Shown in pieces: positions 33,001 through 53,813 of a DNA stretch of 64,000 nt. Source of the stretch: a virus. The notes under the pieces are model-generated. The model was not told the origin of the DNA. It ran no database searches and was given only the letters and a program-made list of their open reading frames with translations. The translations under genes and the position numbers were made by a program. Location: IMG/VR virus record IMGVR_UViG_3300005856_000023, positions 32,001 through 96,000 of that record. The stretch is one strand, 5' to 3'. Positions within the stretch are counted from its first letter, which is position 1. Each line of letters opens with the position of its first letter.

Positions 33001-33020
33001 CATGTGAGCATGTTATTTAT

Positions 33021-33728
33021 ATGGTTAGCTGGCTTATTGGTGTTGGAGACATAGGAGATGAAACAGATTTTGCAAAAATCAGGCAATACGGATTTGTTTA
33101 TGTTTTTAAATTGGGTTCAGGTAATAATCCAGTAGCAACAGAAATAAAAAACAATCTAAACGAGGTTTTATTCAAAACATTTCAGAGAATAACATTACCG
33201 GAATGGCCGCAACAATTTGCTACACAAGATGTATATACACTTAGAATAGAACAACCAGTTATAACTGGTATTGGTGAGCAATTTACTGTTGAATATTTAT
33301 CTGTTTTCAAAAAAGTAGGAGCGGATACAGCATACAATTTTGTAGTTAATAGTTTGCTAAAATGGAAGTATTATTTGGATACATCTATTGAGAAAGGTTG
33401 GATGCCACATACAATAGATCCCAGAGAGCGAACTGCTGTAATAGGATATGTTTTATTATCTCCTGATCTGAGTGAGATATGGGGCGGAGAAATATTCGGT
33501 GGATGTAATTTAACTGAAATTGATACAGGACATAGATATACGGCGGGACAAGTAGAGTTAGCTGTAGCAAGAGCTACATTTGAATTCACTGAGAGAATTC
33601 CATTATTAACTGCGATAAGAGGACAATTAAGAGACACTCTATTTAATCCTGATATAGATTATTTAGCAGATATCCAAAGAGTTATTGAGAAAGCAAAGTC
33701 TATATTCACATTTGCAGATCAGGGATAG
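33021..33728 (+). CDS. second tail tube-like protein
   Basis: FTVEYL...W; YVLLSPDLS...IFGGCNLTEID...ARATFEF, parallel to 24974-25633. Confidence 0.7.
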   Translation: MVSWLIGVGDIGDETDFAKIRQYGFVYVFKLGSGNNPVATEIKNNLNEVLFKTFQRITLPEWPQQFATQDVYTLRIEQPVITGIGEQFTVEYLSVFKKVGADTAYNFVVNSLLKWKYYLDTSIEKGWMPHTIDPRERTAVIGYVLLSPDLSEIWGGEIFGGCNLTEIDTGHRYTAGQVELAVARATFEFTERIPLLTAIRGQLRDTLFNPDIDYLADIQRVIEKAKSIFTFADQG

Positions 33729-33738
33729 TTTTTTTGCC

Positions 33739-33760
33739 AAAAAAAGCCCCGCGAGGGGGG
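33739..33760 (-). terminator. classical intrinsic terminator
   Basis: Minus strand CCCC-TCGC-GGGG-C-T7 right after the 33762 stop. Confidence 0.75.
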
Positions 33761-33761
33761 A

Positions 33762-34064
33762 TCAAGCTTTTTTGTGCTTAGCAATCAATTCACTCAATGT
33801 AAAACCATGTTGCGTGGGCTCTTGCTTGGCTTGCTTGAGTTCTTCCTTGGAGTCTTCCTTCTTGGAACCTTCTTGTTTGGAACCTTGACCAGGAATTGTT
33901 AAGATGATGATTTCTCCAACAAGCTCTAGAATCAGCTTTCTTCCCCTGGGTGGTCTTGGCGAAAATACAAACGTCTGCCCTGGATAAAGCCTACGCAATT
34001 CATCGATAATTTGCTTTGCTCTTTCCTTGCTAACTTTGTTGGCAAAGGTAATAAAGTATACCAT
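33762..34064 (-). CDS. small hypothetical protein, SD-led and GC-richer
   Basis: AAGGAGGT SD; class-1 motif plus 26-nt leader; own hairpin terminator. Confidence 0.8.
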   Translation of the reverse strand: MVYFITFANKVSKERAKQIIDELRRLYPGQTFVFSPRPPRGRKLILELVGEIIILTIPGQGSKQEGSKKEDSKEELKQAKQEPTQHGFTLSELIAKHKKA

Positions 34065-34183
34065 GTTACACCTCCTTAAAAGTTTTTCTTGTATATAAAT
34101 TTAGGCAGTTTTTTAACACATTCTTAAAGTGGATTATAAGCAAAAATTTCATGAATGAACTACAACATATAATAAACTACATT
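34062..34183. repeat. ~120-bp promoter/SD-leader cassette, donor copy
   Basis: Near-identical to 47398-47509 and 51071-51190. Confidence 0.95.
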
Positions 34184-34564
34184 AACGAAGCAAAACAAGA
34201 CCTCGGTAAAACAAAAAAGATTATTGAACAACTACAAAATCGTATAGAGCAAATTCTCAACAAAGAGAAACTATCTACATTTGATTTACATCAACTTAGA
34301 ATATTTAGTGAATTGCTTGATAGCATAAACAATAGAGAAAACAACATAAACAATGCTATCATAAAGAAGATTGAAGTATTGGTTAAATACTCAGAGCAAC
34401 TTGGCATATCTGCTTCCAGCTTGGATTTGAATGAATTGTTAAAAACAGAAAAGATTAATTTGTTTGTTGATAAGGATATAACAGATCCTAAAACTTTTAC
34501 TGAAGAGAGAATAAAGAACACAATCTTTGTGAATGATGATAATGAGGAAAATTTTACTGGCTAG
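34151..34564 (+). CDS. coiled-coil hypothetical protein
   Basis: 137 aa; AGC-N9-ATG. Confidence 0.7.
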   Translation: MNELQHIINYINEAKQDLGKTKKIIEQLQNRIEQILNKEKLSTFDLHQLRIFSELLDSINNRENNINNAIIKKIEVLVKYSEQLGISASSLDLNELLKTEKINLFVDKDITDPKTFTEERIKNTIFVNDDNEENFTG

Positions 34565-34587
34565 CAACATGACTAAAATTATAGATT

Positions 34588-35805
34588 ATGGATTTGTTAA
34601 ACAGCTTTGTAAACAATTGGAATACGAAAATATTTTATGCTCACAATATGAGTTCATTTGACAAGTATGTTCCTGAGAATGTATTCAAAGAATTGGGAAT
34701 TGGTTATCTCATATCATTGGGAACATATCTATCAAGTAAAGTGGATTTAAACACCTTCATAACAATTATTAAAAATCTTGAGAAATTACCGTATGCAGCT
34801 ATTTATATTGACAGTGGCGGATTTCAGTACATAAAAGGTAAACTAACAAAAAAAGATATTGATAGCCATATTAAAGTTTATTTTGAGTTAATTGACTATA
34901 TAGATGCTCAATACAAGCAACAAAACATATCCAAACCAATCTTCATATTCAGCTTGGATATTCCTGCATGCAGAGCTAACAATACAGATGATGTTGTAGA
35001 TGAACAAACAAGTATTAGCGCATCATATGATGTCTACTCAGAAATTGCTAGAAGATTTAAGGAATATGAAACTCAAAGACAATTTATAATAACCGTATTA
35101 CATTTTTCACCAAGTATAGTCTATCAAAATTGGAAGCAAATATATCAACTTCCAAATTTGAATATGGCTCAGTATGTAGCAACTGGATCATCATGGTGGA
35201 TGCACAAAAAGCCAATTTCAGTCGGAGCATATAATGTCTTACATTACTGTTTATTAAGAGCAAACGGATTTAAAAACATAAAATTATACCATATACTAGG
35301 AACAAAAAGCTTGGATAGGTTATATCCTTCTTATGATGTGCTAACAATGTATAACATAAGTATAACACATGATACAACACCATATACTTATTACAGACCA
35401 TTACTAGTTCCCATCTACAATAAAAAGACGAATAGATATAATGTAACAAAATTGGATATACGTAGCAATAAACTACAGTTAATCAAAATTGTCGATGAAT
35501 TGCTCGGAGATAATGTTGCAAAATGGGTTGAAAGTATGTTTGATGAGTTAAATGATTTGAGCAATGTCAAGCATATAACCAAAACAAAAAACATAAAAGT
35601 AAGTAAAATGATGTATGTATCTTTGCTTGATATTTTATCAACGTTATTGATAAACAAGGTTATTGATAAGATTGATAGAAGCATATACACAGAATTTAAA
35701 ATCAACAGAGATTATCAATTTAAATTATTGGAGTTAGCAGATCAGGACCCAGAGAAATTAGAACAATTATTATTGCCATATCTGGATAAGTTTATTGAGG
35801 ATTAG
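34588..35805 (+). CDS. dpdA: DpdA/TGT-like 7-deazaguanine DNA transglycosylase
   Basis: IYIDSGGFQ, FSLDIP, TVLH, YHILG, ITHDTT; FolE, QueE and QueC in the same window. Confidence 0.75.
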   Translation: MDLLNSFVNNWNTKIFYAHNMSSFDKYVPENVFKELGIGYLISLGTYLSSKVDLNTFITIIKNLEKLPYAAIYIDSGGFQYIKGKLTKKDIDSHIKVYFELIDYIDAQYKQQNISKPIFIFSLDIPACRANNTDDVVDEQTSISASYDVYSEIARRFKEYETQRQFIITVLHFSPSIVYQNWKQIYQLPNLNMAQYVATGSSWWMHKKPISVGAYNVLHYCLLRANGFKNIKLYHILGTKSLDRLYPSYDVLTMYNISITHDTTPYTYYRPLLVPIYNKKTNRYNVTKLDIRSNKLQLIKIVDELLGDNVAKWVESMFDELNDLSNVKHITKTKNIKVSKMMYVSLLDILSTLLINKVIDKIDRSIYTEFKINRDYQFKLLELADQDPEKLEQLLLPYLDKFIED

Positions 35806-35851
35806 TTTTTTTACTTTAAGATCAAAATAAAATCTGTCTAAATTTATATTA

Positions 35852-35896
35852 ATGAGAGTAAGGCTTAAAGTTCGCAAAGGTAAATGCTCGAAGTAA
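35852..35896 (+). CDS. 14-aa basic mini-ORF MRVRLKVRKGKCSK
   Basis: Exact CTAAATTT-N6-ATG; T7 at 35934-35940. Confidence 0.4.
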   Translation: MRVRLKVRKGKCSK

Positions 35897-35953
35897 TCGG
35901 TTTGATCACTATTTTGACTATTTATATTTCTTATTTTTTTGCAAAAAACTAGC

Positions 35954-37321
35954 TTACGTTGCTATAACATATCCTGCTAGTGAATCATACAATATGTTAA
36001 CATTTAAACCTCCATGTGGAACAAATAAATGTTTTGTTACATCAAACTTATCATTTTTGCTATCAAGATAGAATAAGACAACTGTATCACCATCAGCATC
36101 TGCATTGTATCCTTCCCATACCAGTTGATTCATTTGTATTGCAAATCCATCGTATGCTCCAGCTATTTTGAATTGCATTGTAGAAGGCAAATGTAATACA
36201 GGTTGTCTCATAAGCAATACATAAACATCTTCTTTGTTTATTATCTCATCAATTATTTTTTTGATTGTTTCATCTACCTTTAAAGTTTGGTAGACATAAT
36301 CAATTCTTTCAGTTATATTACTTTGTTTCTGCTCAATTAGTTTGGATATGATTTTGTCCTCTAGCAACATGAAAGCACAAATATAAGGAACAACTACTTC
36401 ATTTGGTTTGATAGCAGGATTTCCAACCAAAACAGCCCTAGTGCTTAAATCAATTCTTCTACCTAGCGTTTTACCTCTAATTGGACCTGTTTTCTTTTTT
36501 ATGAAGGATGATATTATTTTATGCTCTATTTTGTATAGTTTATGTAACATATTACCATATATAAAGTATTTTGTAGATGTTTCATCTATATCAAGTTTCT
36601 TGTTTGCAGATAAGAGATCAAGATAATCTCTGTTGATCTCATGCAAATTTAAAACGGTTAGATTTTTACCAAATGCAATATTAATATCTCTGACTCCAGC
36701 AGGTAATACATTAATATATTCCACAAAAGCATTGTCAAAGCTAACATTGTTTCTGATGGCTTGTACTAGTTGTATGTTATCATTCAGTTTATTATAAATG
36801 AGCGATGAAACTTGTTCATATAAATCCAAATCCTGATCCAAATATAAACCTTTCTCCAAAGCAATTGAACCAAATTTATCAATCATTGTTTGTATGGACG
36901 CATTATATATCTTAGCAAGTAAATGAAGCCATATACCAAAAGGAGATAAAACCTTCTTCTCAATATACAAACCAAGTGATTTATCCTGTATACCATTATT
37001 CTCATCATAAGCATACATTCCAAATAAACTTTCATACCTATGAAGTATTAACAATATTAATGGATGTGGAACAGGAACATTCAATTTAATTTTACCGATT
37101 GTGTATGCTCTCATGTATGCAGGTTTAGATTCAACATTGCAAACAGGACAAATATATTTTGGTGGGCGAATTATATTGCAAGCACAAGTATAATCATATA
37201 CTGGACCAAATATAGTCTCACTAAATATACCTAATGGATGAAATCTCCACGTTAATCCATAATTTTCTGGCTTAATATTTGATCCCTCAAATATAAGTGG
37301 TTCTGTGATAAATAAACTCAT
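35954..37321 (-). CDS. RNA polymerase beta' N-terminal/catalytic fragment
   Basis: GIFSETIFGP..DYTCAC..CPVC zinc finger, LGRRIDLSTRAV, MRQPVLH, catalytic YNADADGD. Confidence 0.92.
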   Translation of the reverse strand: MSLFITEPLIFEGSNIKPENYGLTWRFHPLGIFSETIFGPVYDYTCACNIIRPPKYICPVCNVESKPAYMRAYTIGKIKLNVPVPHPLILLILHRYESLFGMYAYDENNGIQDKSLGLYIEKKVLSPFGIWLHLLAKIYNASIQTMIDKFGSIALEKGLYLDQDLDLYEQVSSLIYNKLNDNIQLVQAIRNNVSFDNAFVEYINVLPAGVRDINIAFGKNLTVLNLHEINRDYLDLLSANKKLDIDETSTKYFIYGNMLHKLYKIEHKIISSFIKKKTGPIRGKTLGRRIDLSTRAVLVGNPAIKPNEVVVPYICAFMLLEDKIISKLIEQKQSNITERIDYVYQTLKVDETIKKIIDEIINKEDVYVLLMRQPVLHLPSTMQFKIAGAYDGFAIQMNQLVWEGYNADADGDTVVLFYLDSKNDKFDVTKHLFVPHGGLNVNILYDSLAGYVIAT

Positions 37322-37453
37322 AACAAAAAAATTTAGCATACGTGCAAATAACTACTATCTCAGTAGCAGACTATATAATAACAATTTTTGTTTAGTTTTT
37401 GATCATAGTTTTTGTTTATATAAGTATACAAAAAAATTTAGATGATTTGTTCG

Positions 37454-38020
37454 TTATCTCAAGAGCAAATTATATATCACCGTAAATATAAGTTCTTTCT
37501 CTATTCTATTCCATTGAGCTATCTCGTAAACCATATTTATCAAATCCTGATTTGCAAAATCTATGATTTTACGTTCTTTGTTATAGTGATCGTGAACATC
37601 AATACACACTCTATCTAACCCAATAAAACTAACCCCGATATTGCAGTTAAAATTGTAATTCCATATCAGAATATCATAAATACAATCTAATATAAGCTTG
37701 TTTTGTTTCTCGTGACGCCAGGTTTTGTTACTATCAAAATAACTTAAACCGAATTCTGTGGGATTGTAGTACAAACAATTATGATAATTTAAAAGAGCGA
37801 TAATACTATTTACATTTTTTGGGAAATTATCTACAATCAATGACATAAGATGCAAACTGAAAGAATCTTTGAATTGATAATTATATTGCAATTTATACGC
37901 TGATTTATTACTGGATGTTATGTAAGTGTTGTAAAATACGCCGAACTTATAAACTCGATTTTGAAAATTACCAACAGTAAAATATCTTAATTGATTTGTT
38001 CTTGTGTGAATGAGTTTCAT
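37454..38020 (-). CDS. distant member of the 28.7-31.0 kb paralog family
   Basis: SIIALLNY..LYYN resembles PIIHLLNY..LNFN; NQDLINMVYEI resembles NVNLAAMVMHI; class-1 promoter. Confidence 0.65.
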   Translation of the reverse strand: MKLIHTRTNQLRYFTVGNFQNRVYKFGVFYNTYITSSNKSAYKLQYNYQFKDSFSLHLMSLIVDNFPKNVNSIIALLNYHNCLYYNPTEFGLSYFDSNKTWRHEKQNKLILDCIYDILIWNYNFNCNIGVSFIGLDRVCIDVHDHYNKERKIIDFANQDLINMVYEIAQWNRIEKELIFTVIYNLLLR

Positions 38021-38322
38021 GCAAAAAAATTTAGATATGTTTTTTTTGCTCATAACAATAACATAAGATAAAGTAGCAACGACTGCGGCAAATGCTTTTC
38101 ATTTGGACGATTCTCTATCATAGGCGGAAGTGAGTTAAATTTATAATTTCGATGTAACAATTGAAATCAACACACGTAGCAAAAAATTAGACTATTTTTT
38201 GTTACTTAATCAAAATACAAATAATCTCACTGATCAATAACATACTCGCTTTTCTTCTATCCAAACCAGATTGTTATTGCTATAGTAACGAACTTTTACT
38301 AATTTACTTAGACAGTTTTTGT

Positions 38323-40623
38323 TTATACGCTACAGCTTTCACATTCCTCTATCTCTGTTAAGCTTTTACTTCTGCAGTAATACACGGTTTTTAACCCAAG
38401 TTCCCAAGCAAGTTCATAAAGTCTTGAGAGCTTAGGTCCATCAATCTGCTCTGGGTCTATAAACAAGTTCAAAGATTGGGCTTGGTCTATCCATTTTTGC
38501 CTTTCGGCAGCAGCCCTTATTACCCACTCTTGGTCTATATTGTATGCAGACTTATAATGCCAGAAGTATTTGTCTATTTCTGGTGGAACTTGTGGGAGAA
38601 TGCCAGACATATTTTCTTCCTTGTAGTATTTGGCAAAGATAGGATCAATGGACGGAGTGGCTCCTATTATCAGAGATGTGGAGCCTGTGGGCATCAAGGC
38701 AAGCAAGTAGGCATTTCTCAGTCCATATCTCTTGACATCCTCCGCAAGTCCTATCCAGTCTAAGTTATTGCCATTTTCTTCAGATATTTTTTGGTTTTCT
38801 TCTGGCTCTCTTCCAAAGAATATGCCTTTGCTCCAATCTGAACCTTCAAATAAAGGATAAGCTCCTCTTTCTTTTGCCAATTGCATAGAGCCTTTTATAG
38901 CATAGTAAGCTATCCTTTCAAACAAGGCATTGGCAAACCTGAGGTGTTCCTCTGACTCCCATTGGATGCCATTTTTGACCAGACAGTAGTGGTAGTTGCT
39001 TACTCCTATGCCTATGGCTCTGTAGCGTTTGTTGGTATATTCCGCTTCCTTTATGGCATAGTAGTTCATCTCTATCACATTGTCCAGCATCCTCACAAGG
39101 ATAGGAACTACCCTTTCCAAGTCCTCTTTTGTCCAAATCTTGCCAAGGTTTATAGAACCCAGATTACAAACCACCACATCTCCGGACTTTTTCACATGAG
39201 TTATAGTGCCATCTTCTGCTACAGTTTCTGAAATATGCGTTGATACACTTTGATTTTGCACTATCTCGTGGCAAAGATTGGACGAGTAGATCATACCACA
39301 ATGCTTGTTAGGGTTTAACCTGTTGGCGGTGTCCCTAAAGAATATGTAAGGCTCTCCCGTTTCAAAAATCACAGTAAGCAGTCTCTTCCATAGCTCAAAG
39401 GCATCCACTTCTTTTTTGGTGTTTGGCGGAAGTTCTCTCTCAAGCCTTTCATAAAGCTCTTCAAACTCTTGACCGTAGAAGTCCTCCAGGTTTTTGCCAT
39501 CTTTTACATTCTTGCAGTAGTAGGGATCAAAGAGCGTCCACTTTTGTCTGTTTTTCAGTCTTTTCATAAACAGATCTGGTATGGATATGGCAGGATGTAT
39601 GTCGTGAGCCTTCTTTCTCTCGTCTCCTACATTGGTTTTGACCTCCAGAAAGTCCAATACATCCTTATGCCATATGTCAAGGGTTATGGATGCGGAGCCT
39701 TTCCTCATGCCAAGCTGGTCCACATACACCATCACATCGTTGAGAATTTTAACCACAGGTAAAACACCAGAGCTTGCTCCTTTGAATTTCCTTATAGGAG
39801 AACCTGCAGCTCTAATTTTGCCAAGGTATATACCAAGACCTCCTGCAAACTTGGATATTTGTCCTGCCTTTTGCACATTGTCAAAGATATCATAAAGGTC
39901 ATCATCTACTGTTAAAACAAAACAAGAAGAAAGTTGACTATGTGGTCTTCTTGCATTCATAAGTGTAGGAGTTGCCAGAGAGATTTCATGGTTTGATATA
40001 AGGTCATAAAAGAGTTTTGCATATTTTAGCCTTTCCTCCTTCTTTTCAGGAATAGCCAAAGTCATAGCAATAAGCATATACATCTCTTGTGGAAGCTCTA
40101 TAACATTTCCATTCTCATCCCTTACTAAATACCTATCGTAGAGTACTTTTATACCCGTATAGTTGAAAAGAAGGTCTCTGTCTGGATTTATGTAGCTGGC
40201 AAGAGTATCAAACTCTTCTTTGGAGTATTCCCTTAGCAAATACTCGCCGTATATACCTCTGTCTGTGTAGGTCTTCACAAGAGTGTAAAAGCTTTCTGTG
40301 TTGTAAGGCTTGTATTTACCATTTATCTTGTCTTTTATCTTGTAGCCTCTTATATACGCCACATCCTTATAAAGATCGTAAAGAAGAAGTCTTGCTGCCA
40401 CATACTGCCAATCTGGATTTTCTGGAGATACCTTTTCCGCGGCAGTTCTTATGAGCAGCTGCTGTATTTCTTTGGTGGTGATGTCCTCTCTGAATTGTAT
40501 GCGAGCATCCATCTCAAGCTCATAAGGATCAACTCTAAGCCCATTGCAAGCAAAATTGACAATAGATCTGATTTTATTAATTGATAATGGTTCTGTATAA
40601 CCAGTTCGTTTTACAACTCTCAT
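38323..40623 (-). CDS. nrdA: class I ribonucleotide reductase alpha subunit
   Basis: ATP cone, [43 protein letters not shown]-terminal CESC. Confidence 0.97.
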
Positions 40624-40663
40624 TCTTAGTTTTGCTCAAAGCGTTCAGTAAGAACAAAAAAAG

Positions 40664-41602
40664 TTAAAGCTTTAAATTATAGCATTCTTTATATCCGATT
40701 ATTTGTTCGATAGCTTCAGCAAATTCTCTTATCTCAAATTGAGCGTGTTTATGTTTACGTAACTTTATAAAATTGTCTACAGATATTCTTGGAACTGTCC
40801 AGTAAAATCTTGTTTTCATAAATTGTGGCAAAACACCACGAGCTATCTCTTTAGCAACATCTAATTCTCTTAATAAATTGTAAGTAACTTTCATAGTTTT
40901 AACACTTGTTTGTAATAAGCTAACTAGCAAAGTATTTTGTTCATCGTCTAGATAATTATCATCTGAAGCTTGCTTATTGTTTTTTGATTGCAGTCTCAAC
41001 TTTTCTGGAATATAGAAATCCAAATCAACATCCGTATATCTTCTGCTGACTTCATTAAAAGAACCAAATCTATGTCTGAACCATTGTCTTGCAACAAACA
41101 ATGGACATTCTACAATAAATGTATAGTGATCTAAGCATGTTCCAAGTTCTAGTTTGTCCAATAATTTTATCCAACCACTGCTTGTTGTTATAATTTGATC
41201 GTTTTGATCTTTATCTATTGTGTAATTATTTACATTACTTTTGTGTAAAACAAAGCTCATCGTAGTCGGTATTATTTGCTGGGCGTATTCAACTAACTTA
41301 TAAGGCAATTGATCAATAAAATTAATTAATGTGCGAGCATTAAGCCATATATAACTTCCATCATAATAGATGTTAACAACAGGATAAGATATTTTTGATA
41401 TGAGATTTATATATTCTTTTTTATTTGCTTTGAATGCAAATATAACATGTTCAAAAGGAGAAGCGTGCTTATTATCAAGCAAATATTTTATCAATTTTTT
41501 GTCTCTTTCAACATCAATAACAGATGATAAATCTTTAGCAAATGATACTCTTGCAGCTTTAACAATACGTTGATCGCTACCCATTGAAAATAGTTGACTC
41601 AT
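40664..41602 (-). CDS. thyX: flavin-dependent thymidylate synthase, long Aquifex-type
   Basis: AARVSF, HASPFEH, QWFRHRFGSFNEVSRRY, HAQFEIR; MGSDQRIV start recalls Aquifex ThyX. Confidence 0.95.
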   Translation of the reverse strand: MSQLFSMGSDQRIVKAARVSFAKDLSSVIDVERDKKLIKYLLDNKHASPFEHVIFAFKANKKEYINLISKISYPVVNIYYDGSYIWLNARTLINFIDQLPYKLVEYAQQIIPTTMSFVLHKSNVNNYTIDKDQNDQIITTSSGWIKLLDKLELGTCLDHYTFIVECPLFVARQWFRHRFGSFNEVSRRYTDVDLDFYIPEKLRLQSKNNKQASDDNYLDDEQNTLLVSLLQTSVKTMKVTYNLLRELDVAKEIARGVLPQFMKTRFYWTVPRISVDNFIKLRKHKHAQFEIREFAEAIEQIIGYKECYNLKL

Positions 41603-41645
41603 TTGATCTTTTACGCTAATAAAAAAGCTCAAAAAATAAAAACTT

Positions 41646-43331: not shown

Positions 43332-43380
43332 CAATTATGTGTGCTATGATATATTTTCCTTACTTCAAGCTGCTGTAAAA

Positions 43381-45081: not shown

Positions 45082-45099
45082 TTATTTTTTTGCAAAAAA

Positions 45100-45669
45100 T
45101 TATGGATACAACTCAGCTGTCAGTGGAATATTAACAGATGCATTATATATAGTTGTAGAAGTGTCTATATCTAGTGCTAGTATAGGTATTCTACAATTTG
45201 GAGTATTACTTAAGTTAAATATTTTACTTTCAGATCCAGTAGATAGAACCCATTCCATGTTCGTTGTTTTGATACCATCATTACATCTTATTATATTTGT
45301 TTGTACACAGAGATAAGTTCTAAATAGAGTTGCTGTTATATTGTTTGCTGTTTTGTAACTATCTATCTCACTTTTTGTTATTGTAATTGCTTTTGGTTTA
45401 GATATTATTAGTCCAAAACTTTCACATTGTGCTAGCCCAGGTTGTATTGTAACAACAATATCATTTGGAGAAGATGTCACAACCGCAGGTAGAAATCCTT
45501 TTAATGGTCCTATGAAGTCAAAACGACCTGTAATAGCAAAACCTGGAAAGAGATACTTTATTCTATCAGGTGTATATTTATAAACCTCATCAAAGACAAA
45601 TAAATAATCTTCATTATTCATTAGTTGATCTAGCGTTCTTATATCCTGTTGAACAATTGCCACAGACAT
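45100..45669 (-). CDS. probable tail/baseplate structural protein
   Basis: VTIQPGLA..., IPILAL pattern; AGC class. Confidence 0.5.
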   Translation of the reverse strand: MSVAIVQQDIRTLDQLMNNEDYLFVFDEVYKYTPDRIKYLFPGFAITGRFDFIGPLKGFLPAVVTSSPNDIVVTIQPGLAQCESFGLIISKPKAITITKSEIDSYKTANNITATLFRTYLCVQTNIIRCNDGIKTTNMEWVLSTGSESKIFNLSNTPNCRIPILALDIDTSTTIYNASVNIPLTAELYP

Positions 45670-45703
45670 ATCAAATTTTTGTGCTTACAATAAACAAAAA
45701 ATT

Positions 45704-46465
45704 TTATCCTATGAATTCTTTCTCTTTAAAATCCTGTAAAATATGTAATCTGGGACTGAATATCAAATTATGTTTTGCGCAGAATAATAGTGTCTCATAA
45801 CTATTGTTTAATTGTTTTTCTCTTGTTGCTCCTTCTGGCATAACAAATATGCCAATTGCTTTATTTCTTACTTTTTCTACCAATGACAATATAAATTCCT
45901 GGGTTTGTGAACTTTCATAAACAAATTTAAGGGAAAAGCTTATGTTGTTTACATTCATATTGTTTAACTGATCTACGAGTTTTGGATACGTATCTACATA
46001 TTTATGTTGATATCTCGTTTCTTTTGGTGATATGCTAAAATGAAATTTTATGTTATTACAATGAACAAAGTCATCTATTATAGGGTTTGTTCCATTTGTT
46101 TCTATTATGACAAAATCTTTTCCACTATATTCATTCCATAGTTTTGATACTTCAATTATAAATGCTTGTCTATCTTCTGTCATTAAAGGTTCTCCACCAG
46201 TAAACATAAGCAAATAATCTTTTAGCTCATAACTAACATTCTGAACAGAATCAACTATATAGTTTGCTAATATGTAGTTTATCAGTTCCTCTGGACTAAA
46301 ATCTTTACCTGGATTTGACCAATTCTCATAGCTATCACAAAATTTACATCTTAGATTACAACTAGCAAATCTGATTAACAATACAGGTAACCCTATATAT
46401 GCTCCTTCTCCTTGCAATGTCTTGAAAATTTGATAAATACGCTGTTTATTAACTTTGGTTGTCAT
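45704..46465 (-). CDS. queE: 7-carboxy-7-deazaguanine synthase (radical SAM)
   Basis: TLQGEG, CNLRCKFCD, TGGEP, IETNG, ISPK, SPRLH. Confidence 0.93.
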   Translation of the reverse strand: MTTKVNKQRIYQIFKTLQGEGAYIGLPVLLIRFASCNLRCKFCDSYENWSNPGKDFSPEELINYILANYIVDSVQNVSYELKDYLLMFTGGEPLMTEDRQAFIIEVSKLWNEYSGKDFVIIETNGTNPIIDDFVHCNNIKFHFSISPKETRYQHKYVDTYPKLVDQLNNMNVNNISFSLKFVYESSQTQEFILSLVEKVRNKAIGIFVMPEGATREKQLNNSYETLLFCAKHNLIFSPRLHILQDFKEKEFIG

Positions 46466-46511
46466 GCTAATAAATTTAGGTATATTGTAGCAAAAAAAAC
46501 TAATCTAAAAG

Positions 46512-46874
46512 TTAATCTTTGTAGATGTTGTAATACGAGAGCAAGTCAATAAACATTAGAAAATCATTTTCGTACGCTTGGAGTTTGTAAATATACTCTC
46601 TGTGAACATAATCATAATCGTTATACACTAGCTCTATACCTATCAAAATCCAAACACTTTCACCACTTTCCTCCGTTTTTCTATGTAAGAATTGTTCGTT
46701 ACTTAGTATATACAGCTCAGAGTATCCTCTCATGTAATCGTCATTTCTCTTAACCAGAGACGGTTCAGGTAAAAGCATCTCTTCTTCTGTTAATTCTCTA
46801 TCAAGCACTTCCATAAACCAGAAAAACTTCTTTCTAAGCTCACTATAAAACTTTCCTTTTTTTGCTAAAGGCAT
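46512..46874 (-). CDS. hypothetical protein
   Basis: AAGGAGGT SD; 120 aa. Confidence 0.75.
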   Translation of the reverse strand: MPLAKKGKFYSELRKKFFWFMEVLDRELTEEEMLLPEPSLVKRNDDYMRGYSELYILSNEQFLHRKTEESGESVWILIGIELVYNDYDYVHREYIYKLQAYENDFLMFIDLLSYYNIYKD

Positions 46875-46889
46875 AGCACCACCTCCTTT

Positions 46890-47390
46890 TTAGGTTTGAT
46901 TATGATTTTTTTCTCTTTGGATATGCGTGTAGAATAGAGAACTTAGTGTTATGTCTTCGTATCTTTTCCAAACGAGTTTCAAAAACTCCCGTTTTGGCTT
47001 TATTGCAGACCACGTGGGTGATCTATCTACAGCCCTTAGTACTTTTTCTATAGTTTCTTGCCTGACCATTGCAATAGGATAACTTTCTTGTTCCAGTAGT
47101 TCTCTTCTAAGATACACAATAAAAGGCAAAGGTGCAAAGGTGTAATGTCTTATGTGTATCCTAATAGAACACGTAGTAAGACTTACCCACTCCGTTAGAG
47201 GAACTGCATGAACAAGTCCCTCGTCTTCTATATGGAAAATTAGCACGTATTCTTCGGGCATCCAGAAAAGAACTCTAATTTGTCCAACCTGAACAGGGAC
47301 CCTTGCTTCTTCCTTTACTTTAAGCCTTTCTGTCCCCAAACTGTCTTTATAGAATTTCAGAGAAGCCTTAAGCTCTTTTATATCCCTCAT
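46890..47390 (-). CDS. hypothetical protein, paralog of 49838-50350
   Basis: Shared LFWMP.EYVL, GLVHAVPLT.WVSLTTCSI, SPTWSAIKP. Confidence 0.85.
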   Translation of the reverse strand: MRDIKELKASLKFYKDSLGTERLKVKEEARVPVQVGQIRVLFWMPEEYVLIFHIEDEGLVHAVPLTEWVSLTTCSIRIHIRHYTFAPLPFIVYLRRELLEQESYPIAMVRQETIEKVLRAVDRSPTWSAIKPKREFLKLVWKRYEDITLSSLFYTHIQREKNHNQT

Positions 47391-47657
47391 ATCCAACCAC
47401 CTCCTTTAAAAGTTTTTCTTGTATACAAATTTAGATAGTTTTTTAACACATTCTTAAAGTGGATTATAAGCAAAAATTTCATGAACTACAACATATAATA
47501 AACTACATTTTACCAAAGATTTAAAGGTTCAACAACTAAAATGTAATAGTCATAGCGAAAGAAAAAGAAAAATCTATCCTTTCTGTTGCAAGGTATTACA
47601 TATTTGCAATCTACATAATCTATCAAGTAAAGTAAAGCGTTCTTCTCATCATTAGGT

Positions 47658-47783
47658 TTAGTCAATCTTCTCAAAAATACGTCTCCACCAAATCTCCCTG
47701 TCATCAACATGTTCTACCACGACCTTGCCTCCTTGCTTGTTTTCAATTTGCTGGGCTTCGCCCCTGGTTTGTAACTCTTTCAT
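47658..47783 (-). CDS. 41-aa ORF MKELQTRG..., possibly the frameshifted 5' part of a gene ending at 47510
   Basis: GGAGGTG SD, ATGA overlap with upstream stop; identical copy at 51339-51464. Confidence 0.5.
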   Translation of the reverse strand: MKELQTRGEAQQIENKQGGKVVVEHVDDREIWWRRIFEKID

Positions 47784-48394
47784 GATTTCACCTCCTGTAA
47801 TTTTTCTTTTATGAGATTTATTACCTCCTCAGCCAACTCCTTTCTTTCTCTCCTTGGCATCCAATCCCAGTCTGGGTTCCCTTTAAATACAATGTTTAGG
47901 ATTTCATCAGGTTCCAGCCTATCAATGTAATATTTCAACCAGTTTTTCCACAAGTCCAAAACCCACTGATCTGTATCTTTTATCTCCTTCCTTGCAATCA
48001 GTTCTTTCTTAAGAAGGTCTAACCACTCCTCCACACTTAGCCCTGCCCATTTCTCCTCCTTTCCTGCTAACTCTTCAATTCTTTCATAAATTTCCCAAGC
48101 TAACTCCTTCCTTTCCTCAGCCTCTAAATTGTTCCACTCGTCCATTCCACTCAAGAATGTGTCCATAATGGAAGCCAAACTCCACCCCCAACTCCTTTCA
48201 GGAGTAGTATCTAACCAAATCAGTAGTCCTTTTGCCCAGTTTCTTGGCTTTCTAAGATAGTCATAGTAAAGACTGTCCCTTAGAAATTCAATAAATTGAT
48301 TGACCAAAGCTTCCCTATCCATATCACCACCTCCTTTTTGGCTTTGCTGGGATACCCTCCCAGCGGGGGTTTGAACTTGCTCCTTCTTTTCCAT
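47780..48394 (-). CDS. hypothetical protein (copy A), with in-frame upstream ATG at 48421
   Basis: SD AAGGAGGTG; two internal W....ERKELA.E repeats. Confidence 0.8.
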   Translation of the reverse strand: MEKKEQVQTPAGRVSQQSQKGGGDMDREALVNQFIEFLRDSLYYDYLRKPRNWAKGLLIWLDTTPERSWGWSLASIMDTFLSGMDEWNNLEAEERKELAWEIYERIEELAGKEEKWAGLSVEEWLDLLKKELIARKEIKDTDQWVLDLWKNWLKYYIDRLEPDEILNIVFKGNPDWDWMPRRERKELAEEVINLIKEKLQEVKS

Positions 48395-48428
48395 GGCTTC
48401 ACCTCCTTTTAAAGTTTTCATAGTTTTA

Positions 48429-48457
48429 ATTATATACTTAGTCTAAAACTCTGTCAA
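48429..48457 (-). promoter_or_regulatory. consensus sigma70 promoter
   Basis: TTGACA-N17-TATAAT, exact. Confidence 0.85.
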
Positions 48458-48483
48458 GGACTTTTTTATGATTTCCATCATAA

Positions 48484-49242
48484 TTAAAGATTAAAGATAG
48501 CTTGCAAGTATGCAAGGTAGATGCTGTCTCCTAAACCTGCCCCCACCATGAGGTTAGCCAAAAAGGACAAAAGCCCAGCCTTTGAAACCTTGACTTCCCT
48601 CCATCTTTCATTTTCCAAGTCTATAAAAAGCTCTCCCGGAATTTCCGCCCCCATCCCTATAGTTCCAGCGTAAAGCTGATAAGCGTAGATGTGCGGGGAC
48701 ACGGGCAGGTTCAGCTTTGAAAGTTTTCTCACAATCTCTTCTGCCACCTCTTCCACTTGCCCCTGCAAAACCTTCCTCAACCATGAGTGATACTGAAAAA
48801 TTGCAAGTTCGTTCAAGGGTAAATCGTTTCTAATGATCAGCCAGAACAAAGCTTCTCCACCGCCATATGAAGCATTCCATATCTGATCTGGTTCTCGGAA
48901 ATAACAATGCCCTACTTCATGAATGATTATGTGCTCTGCCGGGTTTTCATCTCTGAATGACACCACCCCCTCTTCTATGAAAGCCACCCCGCCCGTCCTG
49001 CTGGCATAGGCGGGGAGCTTAGCAGTCTCTCTTTCAAACTCTTCTTTTGTAATAGCCTTCATCTCAAAAAGCATCTCAAGGAATGCAAGATGATCTACCG
49101 CTTCAGGATTGCGGTCTGCCACGGCAAACTCCTCTTTCCACGGGATGACTTCTACGCTTTTAGAAAATTCAACGAAGTCTTGAAATTTCCTCTTGATAAG
49201 AGGAAAGCTTGGGCATCTCACGAGGTAGTCGTAAGCTTTCAT
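48484..49242 (-). CDS. HExxH zincin-like metallopeptidase domain protein
   Basis: IIIHEVGHCYF; SD GGAGG. Confidence 0.65.
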   Translation of the reverse strand: MKAYDYLVRCPSFPLIKRKFQDFVEFSKSVEVIPWKEEFAVADRNPEAVDHLAFLEMLFEMKAITKEEFERETAKLPAYASRTGGVAFIEEGVVSFRDENPAEHIIIHEVGHCYFREPDQIWNASYGGGEALFWLIIRNDLPLNELAIFQYHSWLRKVLQGQVEEVAEEIVRKLSKLNLPVSPHIYAYQLYAGTIGMGAEIPGELFIDLENERWREVKVSKAGLLSFLANLMVGAGLGDSIYLAYLQAIFNL

Positions 49243-49254
49243 CTTGTCCCCTCC

Positions 49255-49776
49255 TTATTCAAGTTCTTTCAAAAGTTCTTCATCTTCAACGGGCAATTCT
49301 TCTACTCTACCGTCTATATGAAGTATAGTTATGCCTCTTGGCGGTGCTCCATATAGCCTCCCCGTTCTGCTCCATTTAATTTTTATTGCTTCGCTTGATG
49401 TTTCTACCAACACGCCCTCACTCACTCCCAAAGATCCTCTTGGTGACGAATATTCCCAAAACTTATACACTTTACAGTCTTCACAATCATACACTTCTAA
49501 GCTACTATCTCCCCTATAACCACACCCTTTGATGTAATAAAAAACATTTTTATTCGTGTCGGGTTTGAGTATAAGGGTTCTATCGCTCTTTCCCTGTTCT
49601 ATTCTTGCACCTTTGGCTGGAAAGATGAACCTTCTCGCTTCAATAAGTTCTTCGCTCAGAAGCTTTCTATTGATCCATAGCAGATAAGTAGGTCTGCCGT
49701 GAGTTTCTGCACCGATTTCCACATAATAAAACACCTTACCGTCCGCTTCCTTCTCATAAAGATATAGCTTTACCAT
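49255..49776 (-). CDS. hypothetical protein
   Basis: SD AAGGAGGTGA; 173 aa. Confidence 0.8.
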   Translation of the reverse strand: MVKLYLYEKEADGKVFYYVEIGAETHGRPTYLLWINRKLLSEELIEARRFIFPAKGARIEQGKSDRTLILKPDTNKNVFYYIKGCGYRGDSSLEVYDCEDCKVYKFWEYSSPRGSLGVSEGVLVETSSEAIKIKWSRTGRLYGAPPRGITILHIDGRVEELPVEDEELLKELE

Positions 49777-49837
49777 TGCATCACCTCCTTTCCCTTGTTT
49801 TAATCATCTACTAAGTTATATATAACCCCCCCTTCCC

Positions 49838-50350
49838 TCATTTCCTGACACTCTCCCTAAGGCTATACGTGTAGAATAGAGAATTTAGTATTATGTCTTC
49901 GTATCTTTTCCAGACGAGCTTTAGAAAGTCCCTTATGGGTTTTATGGCGGACCAGGTGGGAGAGGTCTCTACGTCCTTTAAAACCTTTTCTATTGTGTCT
50001 GGACGGACTTTGTAGACGGGGACTCCCTCTTCTTCCAGAATTTCCTTTCTGATATAGACCACAAAGGGCAAGGGTGCATAGAGTTTGGGAAAGCCCACCA
50101 CATACTCGGGAAGATGAATTTTGATGGAACAGGTGGTGAGGCTGACCCACACAGTCAAGGGCACCGCATGGACAAGGCCATCCTCTTCCACATGGAACAC
50201 AAGGACATATTCATTGGGCATCCAGAAGAGGTTTCTGAGCTGGCCTATCTCAACGGGTTGTCTTTTATCTTCCTTGACCCTTAACCTTTCCTCTCCTAAG
50301 CTCTCCTTGTACAGTTTCAGAAACATTCTCAGTTCTTCCTTGTCTAACAT
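49838..50350 (-). CDS. hypothetical protein, paralog of 46890-47390
   Basis: SD AAGGAGGTGA; shared motifs. Confidence 0.85.
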   Translation of the reverse strand: MLDKEELRMFLKLYKESLGEERLRVKEDKRQPVEIGQLRNLFWMPNEYVLVFHVEEDGLVHAVPLTVWVSLTTCSIKIHLPEYVVGFPKLYAPLPFVVYIRKEILEEEGVPVYKVRPDTIEKVLKDVETSPTWSAIKPIRDFLKLVWKRYEDIILNSLFYTYSLRESVRK

Positions 50351-50419
50351 GGCTTCACCTCCTTTTAAGTTTTTTTGCTAGGCTTAAATAACCCACCCCA
50401 CTGCGGCGGTGGGATAAAA

Positions 50420-51073
50420 TTAAGGGTAATAGACATACATGTCATAGCCTTCCTCAAAACCTTCTTTCTCTAAATTCACCTTTAAATCCTCCAATAGTCC
50501 TTTTCTCTCCTGTGGTTTCAGCGTTGCAAGTTTCTCAAAGAGGTCGCCAAACTCCTTCAACCACTTCTGATAATATCTTTCTATGTATGCCCTGAAAGCC
50601 CTTTCTCCGCTCTCTAAAACATCTTCATCCTTTAGAAGCATTCTTATCACCCAAACCAACTTGTGCCATTTCTCCGCCTTTTCTTTTTCCTCCTGAGTCC
50701 AGTTCTCCTCTACCGCTACACCCGACAGTCTTCTGTCTCTCACATCTTTAAAGAGGGATAAGACCGATTCCTTGTTCCAAATCTGGATAACCTCATTGTT
50801 CCATTCGGGTTCCACATAAACCAAGTTCCCTCCTATTTCAACTCCAATATAATCCAATCTTTCTAATGCATAAGGATTATCTGGACTTACCCTTTTTACT
50901 AACCAAACATTCCTAGCATCATCAAGTGGACAAAGCCACCAACGGATTGGCCAATACCAGTCCAAGTTTTGAATGGTAAATTTCCAGGGTACAGAAGGAA
51001 CTTGTGGCTTCTCATCATACAAACGGACAAGCATAACATCTACTTCAAATTGGATTTGTTGCAACTCTTTCAT
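50420..51073 (-). CDS. hypothetical protein
   Basis: Driven by cassette copy 51071-51190; SD. Confidence 0.8.
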   Translation of the reverse strand: MKELQQIQFEVDVMLVRLYDEKPQVPSVPWKFTIQNLDWYWPIRWWLCPLDDARNVWLVKRVSPDNPYALERLDYIGVEIGGNLVYVEPEWNNEVIQIWNKESVLSLFKDVRDRRLSGVAVEENWTQEEKEKAEKWHKLVWVIRMLLKDEDVLESGERAFRAYIERYYQKWLKEFGDLFEKLATLKPQERKGLLEDLKVNLEKEGFEEGYDMYVYYP

Positions 51074-51077
51074 GTTA

Positions 51078-52108
51078 CACCTCCTTTAAAAGTTTTTCTT
51101 GTATACAAATTTAGACAGTTTTTTTAACACATTCTTAAAGTGGATTATAAGTAAAAATTTCATGAACTACAACATATAATAAACTACATTTTACCAAAGA
51201 TTTAAAGGTTCAACAACTAAAATGTAATAGTCATAGCGAAAGAAAAAGAAAAATCTATCCTTTCTGTTGCAAGGTATTACATATTTGCAATCTACATAAT
51301 CTATCAAGTAAAGTAAAGCGTTCTTCTCATCATTAGGTTTAGTCAATCTTCTCAAAAATACGTCTCCACCAAATCTCCCTGTCATCAACATGTTCTACCA
51401 CGACCTTGCCTCCTTGCTTGTTTTCAATTTGCTGGGCTTCGCCCCTGGTTTGTAACTCTTTCATGATTTCACCTCCTGTAATTTTTCTTTTATGAGATTT
51501 ATTACCTCCTCAGCCAACTCCTTTCTTTCTCTCCTTGGCATCCAATCCCAGTCTGGGTTCCCTTTAAATACAATGTTTAGGATTTCATCAGGTTCCAGCC
51601 TATCAATGTAATATTTCAACCAGTTTTTCCATAGGTCCCTAACCCACTCTTCCGAATCTCTTATCTCCTTCCTTGCAATCAGTTCCTTCTTCAGAAGGTC
51701 TACCCACTCCTCCACACTTAGCCCTGCCCATTTCTCCTCCTTTCCTGCTAACTCTTCAATTCTTTCATAAATTTCCCAAGCTAACTCCTTCCTTTCCTCA
51801 GCCTCTAAATTGTTCCACTCGTCCATTCCACTCAAGAATGTGTCCATAATGGAAGCCAAACTCCACCCCCAACTCCTTTCAGGAGTAGTATCTAACCAAA
51901 TCAGTAGTCCTTTTGCCCAGTTTCTTGGCTTTCTAAGATAGTCATAGTAAAGACTGTCCCTTAGAAACTCAATAAATTGATTGAGTAGGGCTTCCCTATC
52001 CATATCAACATCTCCTTCATCGGTTTGGCTTTGCTGGGATACACTCCCAGCGGGGGTTTGAACTTGCTCCTTCCTTTCCATGACTTTACCTCCTCTTAAG
52101 GTTTTCAT
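51078..52108. repeat. ~1-kb direct repeat, copy B
   Basis: Matches 47398-48420. Confidence 0.95.
51461..52081 (-). CDS. hypothetical protein (copy B), with in-frame upstream ATG at 52108
   Basis: Near-identical to 47780-48394. Confidence 0.8.
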   Translation of the reverse strand: MERKEQVQTPAGSVSQQSQTDEGDVDMDREALLNQFIEFLRDSLYYDYLRKPRNWAKGLLIWLDTTPERSWGWSLASIMDTFLSGMDEWNNLEAEERKELAWEIYERIEELAGKEEKWAGLSVEEWVDLLKKELIARKEIRDSEEWVRDLWKNWLKYYIDRLEPDEILNIVFKGNPDWDWMPRRERKELAEEVINLIKEKLQEVKS

Positions 52109-52173
52109 AATTTTAATTTTAGACAAGTTTAGACGTAGTCAAGGTTTTTTTATGATTTTTATCATGTTTCCTT

Positions 52174-52257
52174 TCATGGTAGAAAAATAGCCTGCAAGTA
52201 TGCAGAATATATGCCGTCTCCCAAGCCCGCCCCAACTATGAGATTAGCAAAGAAGGA
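52174..52257 (-). pseudogene. 3' remnant of a paralog of 48484-49242
   Basis: SFFANLIVGAGLGDGIYSAYLQAIFLP* versus SFLANLMVGAGLGDSIYLAYLQAIFNL*. Confidence 0.85.
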
Positions 52258-52259
52258 AC

Positions 52260-52560: not shown

Positions 52561-52582
52561 ACAGTAACCCTTTCCTTCTTCT

Positions 52583-53347: not shown

Positions 53348-53367
53348 CTCTGACACCTCCTTGTCTG

Positions 53368-53729: not shown

Positions 53730-53813
53730 GACTTCACCTCCTCTTAAGGTTTTCATAATTTTAATTTTAGACAAGTTTTAGACTTATCATGTGTAGTATG
53801 CTTAAAGTATATT

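Follow-up and report, generated by a model that had tools for sequence, protein, structure and literature searches.

We analyzed a 64,000-nucleotide (nt) stretch of viral DNA, referred to here as the window, which comprises bases 32001 to 96000 of a single 129,010-bp virus contig (IMGVR_UViG_3300005856_000023; GC content, 30.7%) from an uncultivated hot-spring phage. The window contains three copies of a short block of some 80 to 120 bp, here referred to as the cassette, each located ahead of a different gene with a strong Shine-Dalgarno (SD) sequence, and further copies of its core precede unrelated genes in related phages. We consider it probable that these cassettes belong to a family of regulatory modules, each pairing a phage-type promoter with an SD leader, and that the family acts as a recombination joint for accessory genes.

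Three cassette copies combine a class-1 motif with an SD leader

Self-BLAST of the window and of the whole 129,010-bp genome located the block at three positions only, 34062 to 34183 (copy A), 47398 to 47509 (copy B), and 51071 to 51190 (copy C), in agreement with the initial annotation of this DNA. Copies A and C are 92.7% identical over 124 nt (E value, 4e-44), and copies A and B are 93.1% identical over 116 nt (E value, 5e-42). Alignment of all three confirmed the minus-strand reading given for them earlier, CTAAATTT-N6-AAGAAAAACTTTTAA(A)GGAGGTG. On this strand, each copy starts with the reverse complement of the beginning and 5' flank of the gene at 34151, followed by C-TAAATTT, six bases, AAGAAAAACTTTTAA(A)GGAGGTG, and an ATG. 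Copies A and C are identical through the ATG (GGAGGTGTAACATG), and copy B departs after GGAGGTG, its homology ending within the SD (GGAGGTG followed by GTTGGATATG). In copy A, C-TAAATTT occupies 34103 to 34097, the predicted transcription start is the A at 34090 after six bases, and the 26-nt leader (AAGAAAAACTTTTAAGGAGGTGTAAC) runs to the ATG at 34064 to 34062. The heptamer, predicted +1 A, and leader length are 47433 to 47427, 47420, and 30 nt in copy B and 51113 to 51107, 51100, and 27 nt in copy C.

The genes behind the cassettes, here called passengers, lie on the minus strand at 33762 to 34064 (copy A; 100 amino acids [aa]; family F1; GC content, 42%), 46890 to 47390 (copy B; 166 aa; family F5), and 50420 to 51073 (copy C; 217 aa; family F7; GC content, 41%). 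All three have GGAGGTG 5 to 8 nt ahead of the ATG, their GC content is 38 to 42% compared with ~29% in the backbone, and their products are mutually unrelated, falling into separate blastp clusters. Copies B and C lie in an accessory island (46512 to 55154) in which all genes are on the minus strand, carry GGAGGTG SDs, and have a GC content of 35 to 45% compared with ~29% elsewhere. For the SD pattern AAGGAGGTG-N5-ATG (≤1 mismatch), there are 11 occurrences against 0.16 expected, always on the minus strand between 46.8 and 53.8 kb, and strong SDs are almost confined to a single region at 46.5 to 54.4 kb.

The cassette heptamer matches a recurrent backbone motif (class 1) that stands exactly six bases before the start codon. 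The window contains 23 instances of CTAAATTT-N6-ATG, where 0.17 would be expected, and 42 such sites precede open reading frames (ORFs) of ≥50 aa genome-wide, with the consensus ACAAC-N4-C-TAAATTT-N6-ATG, in which the C at -1 is invariant and the ACAAC element lies at -10 to -6. Backbone genes with this motif presumably yield leaderless mRNAs. In the cassette, the position of the backbone ATG reads AAG, its A being retained, and an SD leader of 26 to 30 nt comes after it, which bears out the earlier description of a class-1-type motif with a leader replacing the ATG. The C at -1, the TAAATTT, and the A six bases on are present in the three window copies and in 24 metagenome copies described below. 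In scoring with a position weight matrix from the 42 sites, cassette flanks reached 3.3 to 5.7, compared with a median of -13.8 at 138 other TAAATTT sites, and took rank 4 to 5 of the 42 true sites. Because a 27-nt SD leader separates the motif from the ATG, the motif is more plausibly a promoter than a translation signal with fixed spacing.

In the module that we propose, a -10-like heptamer is followed by six bases, an A serving as the transcription start, and a strong-SD leader of 26 to 30 nt ending at the ATG; the canonical heptamer is the phage's own class-1 motif, C-TAAATTT. Since the cassette has AAG at the ATG position and then an SD leader, a gene with a foreign SD could use the phage-type promoter, and a gene bringing only its own SD or ATG would be transcribed from it. 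Downstream genes would be swapped by homologous exchange between copies and by crossovers within the shared SD, and an occasional illegitimate event would copy the module to a new place. At the SD junction of copy B, the gene keeps its own GGAGGTG-TTGG..ATG tail, as on a contig of a Thermocrinis metagenome-assembled genome (MAG), consistent with a crossover there. If the cassette is an active promoter, a phage with mostly leaderless-type genes could express genes from an SD-using host without a precise ATG fusion, and any crossover within the shared leader of ~30 nt would suffice.

Copies B and C trace to one capture followed by a duplication

At its upstream end, the block holds, in reverse complement, the first 33 nt (11 codons) of gene 34151 to 34564, a plus-strand backbone gene of 137 aa whose sequence is 96% identical in a relative (L001). 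In copy A, the upstream part comprises codons 1 to 11 of this gene together with its 5' flank, which includes a motif termed class 2 here ('AGC', 9 nt before the ATG). Locus A is the ancestral site because the same architecture is found in the relative G001 and on 10 metagenome contigs; in G001, C-TAAATTT-atatac-AAGAAAAAC...GGAGGTGTAGCCATG stands ahead of the orthologous gene (113 aa). The gene-34151 codons therefore mark the donor, as the initial annotation had stated. In copies B and C, the remnant of this gene lacks 4 nt (ATGAATGAAC to ATGAAC), and the resulting frameshift, also recognized earlier, makes it read M-N-Y-N-I-stop. An AGC-to-AGT change had been noted for the 51-kb copy; we found the change (TTATAAGC to TTATAAGT, G to A, with a T on the plus strand at 51152) in copy C only, in the 5' flank of the remnant ATG, in the class-2 'AGC' motif, and not in a codon. 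The shortened remnant abuts the stop of ORF 47510 to 47710 in copy B and adjoins the stop of ORF 51191 to 51391 in copy C.

Copies B and C form the distal ~112 to 120 nt of a duplication, 47398 to 48567 and 51078 to 52257, with 93.5% identity over 1,183 nt, including an identical run of 479 nt (47472 to 47950 and 51153 to 51631). On the minus strand, unit B contains the 3' end of a 252-aa gene, a 204-aa gene, two small ORFs, and cassette B, and unit C contains a remnant resembling the C terminus of the 252-aa protein (...ANLIVGAGLGDGIYSAYLQAIF..., frame 1 of 52090 to 52600, minus strand), a 206-aa gene, two small ORFs, and cassette C. The two cassettes share derived states, namely, the 4-nt gap and TTTG in place of TTTA, that are missing from all 22 other copies covering those positions. 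In addition, both have one more A ahead of the SD, and both adjoin the stop codon of a 66-codon ORF at the same junction. Because B and C have the gap, substitution, and junction in common and sit at the end of a duplication, a single capture from the 34-kb locus followed by duplication accounts for both, and the three copies therefore represent two events. That the island copies derive from a locus of the 34-kb type, marked by the gene-34151 remnant, is supported by these sequence comparisons. This genome alone therefore shows a single transfer; portability is supported among relatives, as described below.

Under this reading, the divergent intergenic region of locus A would have been copied once, by an illegitimate event that took along 33 nt of gene 34151, to a site directly behind the stop of a small ORF in the island. 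Duplication of a segment of at least 1.18 kb would then have given B and C, and one unit would later have gained or lost the 217-aa gene at the SD. The gene order has the 166-aa gene after unit B and its 170-aa paralog (49838 to 50350; 108 identities in a 172-column alignment) after unit C, with the 217-aa gene and a hairpin between cassette C and the 170-aa gene. The latter retains a leader-like AAAAAACTTAAAAGGAGGTGAAGCC without the promoter motif. The two overlapping small ORFs (47510 to 47783 and 51191 to 51464), one of 41 aa that has an SD and one of 66 aa that lacks it, do not differ between the units; the 41-aa ORF begins MKELQT, like a 95-aa gene at 53729, and the 41/66-aa pair could be one frameshifted gene.

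It is highly improbable that copies B and C, or the whole duplication, are strain variants that were wrongly concatenated. The 479 nt of perfect identity inside units that are otherwise ~90% identical would fit such an error, as would a contig that breaks inside cassette B in the way that assemblers do at repeats (L030, 99% identical to 35771 to 47468); as an independent assembly, this contig also supports copy B. However, 3.7 kb of unique genes separates the units, several differences between copies lie inside the block itself, and an independent contig (L011) also bears more than one cassette. The independent assembly L035 (99.45% identical to 29656 to 36014) and nine other contigs confirm copy A. 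Moreover, a decayed copy of the 252-aa C terminus lies ahead of unit C, which argues that the duplication is evolutionary and not a product of assembly.

The cassette precedes unrelated gene families in related phages

We searched metagenome contigs with a 23-nt core of the cassette, CTAAATTTRTATACAAGAAAAAC, and obtained 26 loci, comprising 3 CRISPR arrays and 23 phage-like contigs. These contigs carry 24 further cassette copies in at least four genomic contexts: 10 at locus A, 12 in a slot between the beta'-like gene and the ribonucleotide reductase (RNR) gene, downstream of the latter (window 37387 to 38124), 1 elsewhere, with flanks resembling the window at ~26.3 kb and ~60.3 kb (L025), and 1 corresponding to copy B (L030). 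Among the 10 locus-A contigs, one is that of G001 itself and one is a 99.45% match to this genome. The slot holds a leaderless-type 188-aa gene here and an 84-aa gene in G001.

Passengers from the window and the metagenomes fall into families unrelated by blastp, with 11 members in F1, 2 in F2, 5 in F3, 4 in F4, 3 in F5, and 1 each in F6 and F7. Six families stand behind metagenome copies, and the 217-aa gene of the window brings the number to seven. Genes of four different families occur in the slot behind one and the same flank and cassette, and contig L011 carries two cassettes 768 nt apart with a different gene behind each. For pairs of copies with different passengers, the median identity is 0.92 in the leader and 0.67 from -45 to -1, compared with 0.49 in the 90 nt after the ATG, 0.52 from -170 to -100, and 0.49 to 0.52 for random sequence. 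Because identity falls to the random level on either side, the shared element extends from about -45 (ATAATCCA...) to the SD or ATG; the L025 copy keeps only -33 to the SD. The comparison of cassette-adjacent genes that had been suggested as a check thus found the same core before unrelated families, with random identity after the ATG. The reassortment of cassettes and genes across at least four contexts and seven families, with homology that ends at the ATG, supports portability at the population level.

In IMG/VR, the 23-nt core found one relative only, G001, and a longer pattern including CTTTTAA had no match. G001 is a 53.9-kb contig that is 91 to 97% identical to, and colinear with, window positions 26.8 to 46.5 kb. 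It joins window position 46508 directly to 86862, and the island, QueC, and several class-1-promoted genes (~40 kb) are absent there. RNA-library contigs of another run also diverge at 46509, ending loosely.

Gene content in the slot differs in nearly every relative (L011, L013, L014, L017, L019, L023, L024, L026, L027, and L032), and slot genes are drawn from the island pool, with homologs of 52583 to 53347, 53442 to 53729, and 46890 to 47390. At the slot edge, window 37403 to 37447 contains a class-1 motif with a flank score of 11.8, followed by an A/T-rich leader of ~24 nt without an SD and by a short ORF only; this may be a cassette in decay. In a DNA contig from another run, 51096 is joined to 37428. 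At a likeness threshold of 88, the cassette core is connected with 38182 and 37387 in contigs of other runs (RNA library and DNA), and 34149 with 47791 in a contig of a DNA run. These joins agree with the slot arrangement and weakly suggest further junction variants.

Proposed promoter function and its alternatives

Several points weigh against a promoter that drives portable foreign genes. The upstream element is a poor class-1 match (AAAAC-N3-C for ACAAC-N4-C, a one-base shift), and the cassettes rank low among class-1 sites. Unlike ordinary class-1 promoters, the cassettes are conserved from -45 to -12, which may reflect another function or simply recent common descent. The promoter role is itself a prediction from sequence, and read-through from the QueC promoter (55978) could transcribe the island, making the cassettes perhaps unnecessary for expression. 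Only one transfer is demonstrable within this genome, and two passenger families (F1 and F7) have no detected host homolog. Finally, conservation of the 23-nt core was fixed by the search pattern, diverged copies fall outside the sample, and the contigs are short.

Sequencing runs containing the phage gave shares of at most 0.17 and are stored as contigs, which cannot show transcript starts. Contigs of three RNA-library runs and one DNA run (likeness, 88) cover relatives of 33.5 to 46.5 kb; the segment from 47.4 to 53.4 kb is uncovered in the RNA-library contigs and found in parts only in DNA run X1, a distribution that has no bearing on island expression.

The block could conceivably be a passive relic, a young scar of ectopic recombination and duplication with no regulatory role, with the island expressed by read-through from the QueC promoter or from its own sigma-70-type promoters. 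That B and C reflect one event plus a duplication, that they carry a useless frameshifted gene fragment, and that the cassette score is low among class-1 sites would all fit a relic, as would a perfect TTGACA-N17-TATAAT within the island (48457 to 48429) and the overlap of QueC with the first island gene. We nevertheless regard this explanation as unlikely, given that the same core lies ahead of seven unrelated families in at least four contexts, with homology stopping at the ATG. In addition, L025 and the slot copies keep the promoter-leader core without the gene-34151 remnant, which argues that the part that persists is the regulatory part.

We also weighed whether the cassette is functional but not, or not only, a class-1 promoter. 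The conserved region from -45 to -12 (TATAATCCA...CTTTAAGAATGTGTTAA) might be a phage-regulator operator, a host-type -10 element (TATAAT), or a divergent class-2 promoter, which would fire antisense into the upstream island ORFs, and the leader might exert translational control. Ordinary class-1 promoters hold no information in this region, whereas its median identity between cassette contexts is 0.67 against 0.49 for random sequence; the 'AGC' motif and remnant ATG are intact in copy B, and a TATAAT hexamer lies within the core. Against these possibilities, no -35 partner for TATAAT was found at locus A, the remnant ORF has 5 codons only, AGC is mutated in copy C, and no leader structure is predicted. 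L025, moreover, lacks everything upstream of CACTTTAAG and yet stands ahead of an intact gene. A function of this other kind is accordingly doubtful, and a phage-type promoter joined to an SD leader is the reading that we prefer.

Sister modules in the island

Three further minus-strand modules of the same layout lie in the island. The first, at 48395 to 48457, consists of TTGACA-N17-TATAAT (12/12 to the sigma-70 consensus), T, N6, and ATGAAAACTTTAAAAGGAGGTGAAGCC, followed by the ATG of the 204-aa gene (48394). The second, at 52082 to 52125, reads gtcTAAAATT-aaaatt-ATGAAAACCTTAAGAGGAGGTAAAGTC ahead of the ATG of the 206-aa gene (52081), and the third, at 53730 to 53775, reads gtcTAAAATT-aaaatt-ATGAAAACCTTAAGAGGAGGTGAAGTC ahead of the ATG of a 95-aa gene (53729). 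The form common to the last two is gtcTAAAATT-N6-ATGAAAACCTTAAGAGGAGGT(G/A)AAGTC-ATG. In all three modules, a 5' ATG stands at the position of the cassette's AAG, in frame and nine codons upstream of the SD-led ATG. The spacing of hexamer, 7 nt, and A is equal in the sigma-70-type module and the class-1 sites, from which we infer a -10-like role for TAAATT(T) and a transcription start at the A that follows.

The canonical and variant forms are linked by contig L013, in which TAAATTT-aaaatt-ATGAAAACCTTAAAGGAGGTG precedes an F5 gene. Overall, F5 genes are found behind four upstream elements: the canonical cassette (copy B, L030, and L025), the TAAATTT-aaaatt-ATG module (L013), the leader only (50350), and a plain host-type SD (L008, the Thermocrinis MAG contig). 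The N terminus of the 95-aa protein resembles, by eye, that of family F3, whose members sit behind the canonical cassette in relatives.

A broader and more tentative reading, to which we give less than even weight, is that these elements form a family of expression adaptors with an interchangeable heptamer and first transcribed triplet, serving both island and slot by recombination. The heptamer would be host type (TTGACA-N17-TATAAT), TAAAATT, or the phage class-1 TAAATTT. As the first triplet, ATG would give a 5'-terminal start in frame with the SD-led start, and AAG would leave the SD-led start only. If so, adaptor swaps would set both timing (host or phage-programmed polymerase) and translation mode (leaderless, SD led, or both). 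The element would then be conserved enough to be a recurrent CRISPR target, and shuffling like that of promoter early stem-loop elements (PeSLs) would operate on a promoter of the leaderless type, in a 129-kb Thermocrinis phage lineage that has not been described before and encodes a beta'-like RNA polymerase (RNAP) subunit of its own.

CRISPR spacers and host-type genes point to a probable Thermocrinis-type host

The cassette is matched by spacers in all three CRISPR arrays. In the first (L016; 19 repeats and 18 spacers), one spacer matches the cassette (34/36 to copy A), two spacers identical to each other match window 18968 to 19003 (36/36), one matches 65971 to 66006 (35/36), and two are near-full matches to the F1 gene of G001; two more match only 17 to 19 nt of the F1 Q-rich repeat region, which is weak evidence. 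The pattern looks like locally clustered (primed-type) acquisition. The other two arrays (L021 and L031; 28 and 29 spacers) have one spacer each over the cassette and an L011-type leader variant. The Thermocrinis sp. MAG G002 carries repeat 1 four times, with one mismatch. Repeat 2 (≤3 mismatches) was found 93 times in the same MAG, and 24 of the 61 genomes sampled from the MAG's family contain it. Because the repeats that accompany cassette-targeting spacers occur in a Thermocrinis MAG, the host is most likely a Thermocrinis-type Aquificota bacterium that uses SDs.

Contig L008 of G002 (24 kb; GC content, 44%) carries phage-like segments at 70 to 84% nucleotide identity, namely, the KH-domain, 166/170-aa, and 252-aa genes. 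Its KH-domain and 166/170-aa homologs have GGAGGTG SDs of their own, and its 252-aa homolog has no GGAGG upstream. The match to the copy B passenger is at 70 to 75% nucleotide identity. Among 382 candidates, the 252-aa gene has 146 metagenome homologs (E ≤ 0.001); 119 are listed besides the query, at 63 to 85% identity. Neighboring genes on L008 encode a clamp-like protein, an M78 peptidase, and a Type ISP restriction enzyme, suggesting a mobile or defense region. The closest phage-host match seen is the SD-led KH-domain gene of the window (60552 to 61715; GC content, 42%), which is 84% identical in nucleotide sequence to L008 3 to 715 and suggests a recent phage-host exchange.

At least part of the island is most likely host-type DNA on these comparisons. 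The foreign origin attributed to the passengers by the initial annotation finds support for the 166/170-aa family and other island genes, which match the Thermocrinis MAG contig, and is not shown for the 100-aa and 217-aa proteins. Among 90 genomes of Aquificaceae, the family of the Thermocrinis MAG, there were 0 F1 homologs and one weak F7 match (E value, 2e-4), results that are not evidence of absence. Pfam and PHROG searches returned no match for the three passengers or most island genes, the ESM Atlas gave no usable match for the passengers (scores of <0.9 and template modeling values of <0.5), and the 217-aa protein had no relative in IMG/VR. The F1 protein has a Q/T/N-rich low-complexity N-terminal region that ranges from absent (this genome and L022) to ~45 residues among relatives ~95% identical in the backbone (L012 to L036), and CRISPR spacers match this Q-rich repeat region.

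The earlier view that the cassette bridges two incompatible translation initiation systems does not hold. The inferred host uses GGAGGTG SDs and must translate both gene sets in one cell, and the three sister modules have a 5'-terminal ATG in frame with an SD-led ATG.

Genome setting

The island is bordered by a radical-SAM (QueE-like) gene (45704 to 46465) and QueC (55147 to 55965), which overlaps the first island gene; it is absent at that position in G001. It thereby splits a 7-deazaguanine-type gene set (QueE-like and QueC) and contains an SD-led phosphoribosyltransferase gene (53814 to 54371). A GC-rich, terminator-like hairpin followed by a T-run lies on the minus strand directly after the 217-aa gene (50392 to 50418).

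The phage also encodes a Gp23-like capsid protein (4009 to 5745; the match to Gp23 is weak), a DnaB-like helicase, ThyX, the class I RNR large subunit, QueC, and the radical-SAM (QueE-like) enzyme. A further protein, of 455 aa, resembles bacterial RNAP beta' in its catalytic region and has only 24 to 30% matches among GenBank phages. No GenBank phage relative was found by megablast with 33 to 53 kb, tblastn with the capsid protein, or blastn with the cassette. A sequence search of the PDB with the neighbors 34588 to 35805 and 41646 to 43334 gave no match, and no tRNAs were found in the window.

About 30 backbone genes without TAAATTT and without an SD carry the class-2 motif, 'AGC' ~9 to 11 nt before the ATG (for example, at window 34139 to 34141, 45683 to 45685, and 33005 to 33007); gene 34151 belongs to this class. 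At 28678 to 31021, four tandem copies of a ~585-bp unit (76 to 93% identical) each contain a class-1 promoter motif and an ORF of 172 to 174 aa, and only two of the four have a counterpart in G001. The RNR large-subunit gene (38323 to 40623) is possibly another acquired gene, since its GC content is 39 to 42% within a 29% GC backbone and its best phage matches are to Bacillota phages (44 to 49% aa identity).

Comparison with known systems

In lambdoid and other tailed phages, morons are units of promoter, gene, and terminator inserted between backbone genes. Cassette C, the 217-aa gene, and the hairpin at 50392 to 50418 would together form a self-contained moron-like unit: the promoter motif and terminator-like hairpin are predicted features, and the GC content is 41% compared with 29%. 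As with morons, unit C differs from the backbone in composition, and it sits among other accessory genes. A moron promoter comes with each gene, however, whereas the promoter proposed here would be a shared, reusable module from the phage's own promoter class.

The Thermus phage phiYS40 reportedly has leaderless middle and late genes. In Deinococcus-Thermus, leaderless expression of genes has been described, from a -10 region that adjoins the ORF (PMC12340547). Like these systems, the phage has a -10-like element at a fixed short distance from the ATG and a coexistence of SD-led and leaderless genes; they differ in that they are not known to have a cassette that moves from gene to gene and turns a leaderless promoter into one with an SD leader. 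Literature searches on PeSLs, on Thermocrinis or leaderless phages, and on viruses of Aquificae found no description of this phage lineage or cassette, and a study of an Aquificae virus that they returned concerns a different viral genus (PMC7689252).

PeSLs were named as an established analog in the initial annotation. A PeSL is defined by a sigma-70 early promoter together with a stem-loop terminator, flanked by a stop codon upstream and by an SD and start codon downstream; some 50 per genome mediate insertions and deletions in hyperplastic regions (PMC2839356, Arbiol et al. 2010; also PMC4122927, Comeau et al. 2014). As described there, PeSLs differ from the cassette in several respects. 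We found no stem-loop: RNA folds of the three copies had energies of -12.3 to -13.1 kcal/mol (z scores of +1.36 to +1.54 against shuffles; 184 to 194 of 200 shuffles folded at least as well), and the leader alone reached -1.4 kcal/mol, whereas PeSLs have a stem-loop or terminator within the element. Sigma-70 scans at A, B, and C detected no -35/-10 pair in cassette orientation, TAAATT matching TATAAT at 4 of 6 positions, so that a phage-specific -10-like heptamer without a -35 stands in place of the PeSL sigma-70 consensus. There are three canonical and three variant modules here compared with ~50 PeSLs per genome, and PeSLs belong to T4-type phages, in contrast to a phage that is not T4-like, save for the weak Gp23 match, and most likely has a thermophilic Aquificota host.

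The analogy stands at the level of function and boundaries. Both elements, on the PeSL features given above, are small intergenic regulatory repeats with an upstream stop codon at the 5' end and an SD and start codon at the 3' end; among the cassettes, A and C remain homologous as far as the ATG and B as far as a point within the SD, and B and C start at an ORF stop. Both are concentrated in hyperplastic regions ahead of ORFans and coincide with boundaries of insertion, deletion, and replacement between relatives, here in the slot at 37387 to 38124 and in the island, with seven passenger families and random-level identity after the ATG. With boundaries and gene swaps alike and stem-loop, sigma-70 promoter, and copy number different, the cassette appears to work like a PeSL without being one. 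If it is active, gene shuffling by regulatory cassettes, so far documented for T4-type phages of Gram-negative mesophiles, would extend to an uncultivated phage of hyperthermophilic Aquificota whose cassettes have no stem-loop and follow another promoter logic. The 23-nt core would also provide a handle on accessory-gene hot spots in hot-spring metagenomes, where it has already led to 23 phage-like contigs, 3 CRISPR arrays, and a host assignment.

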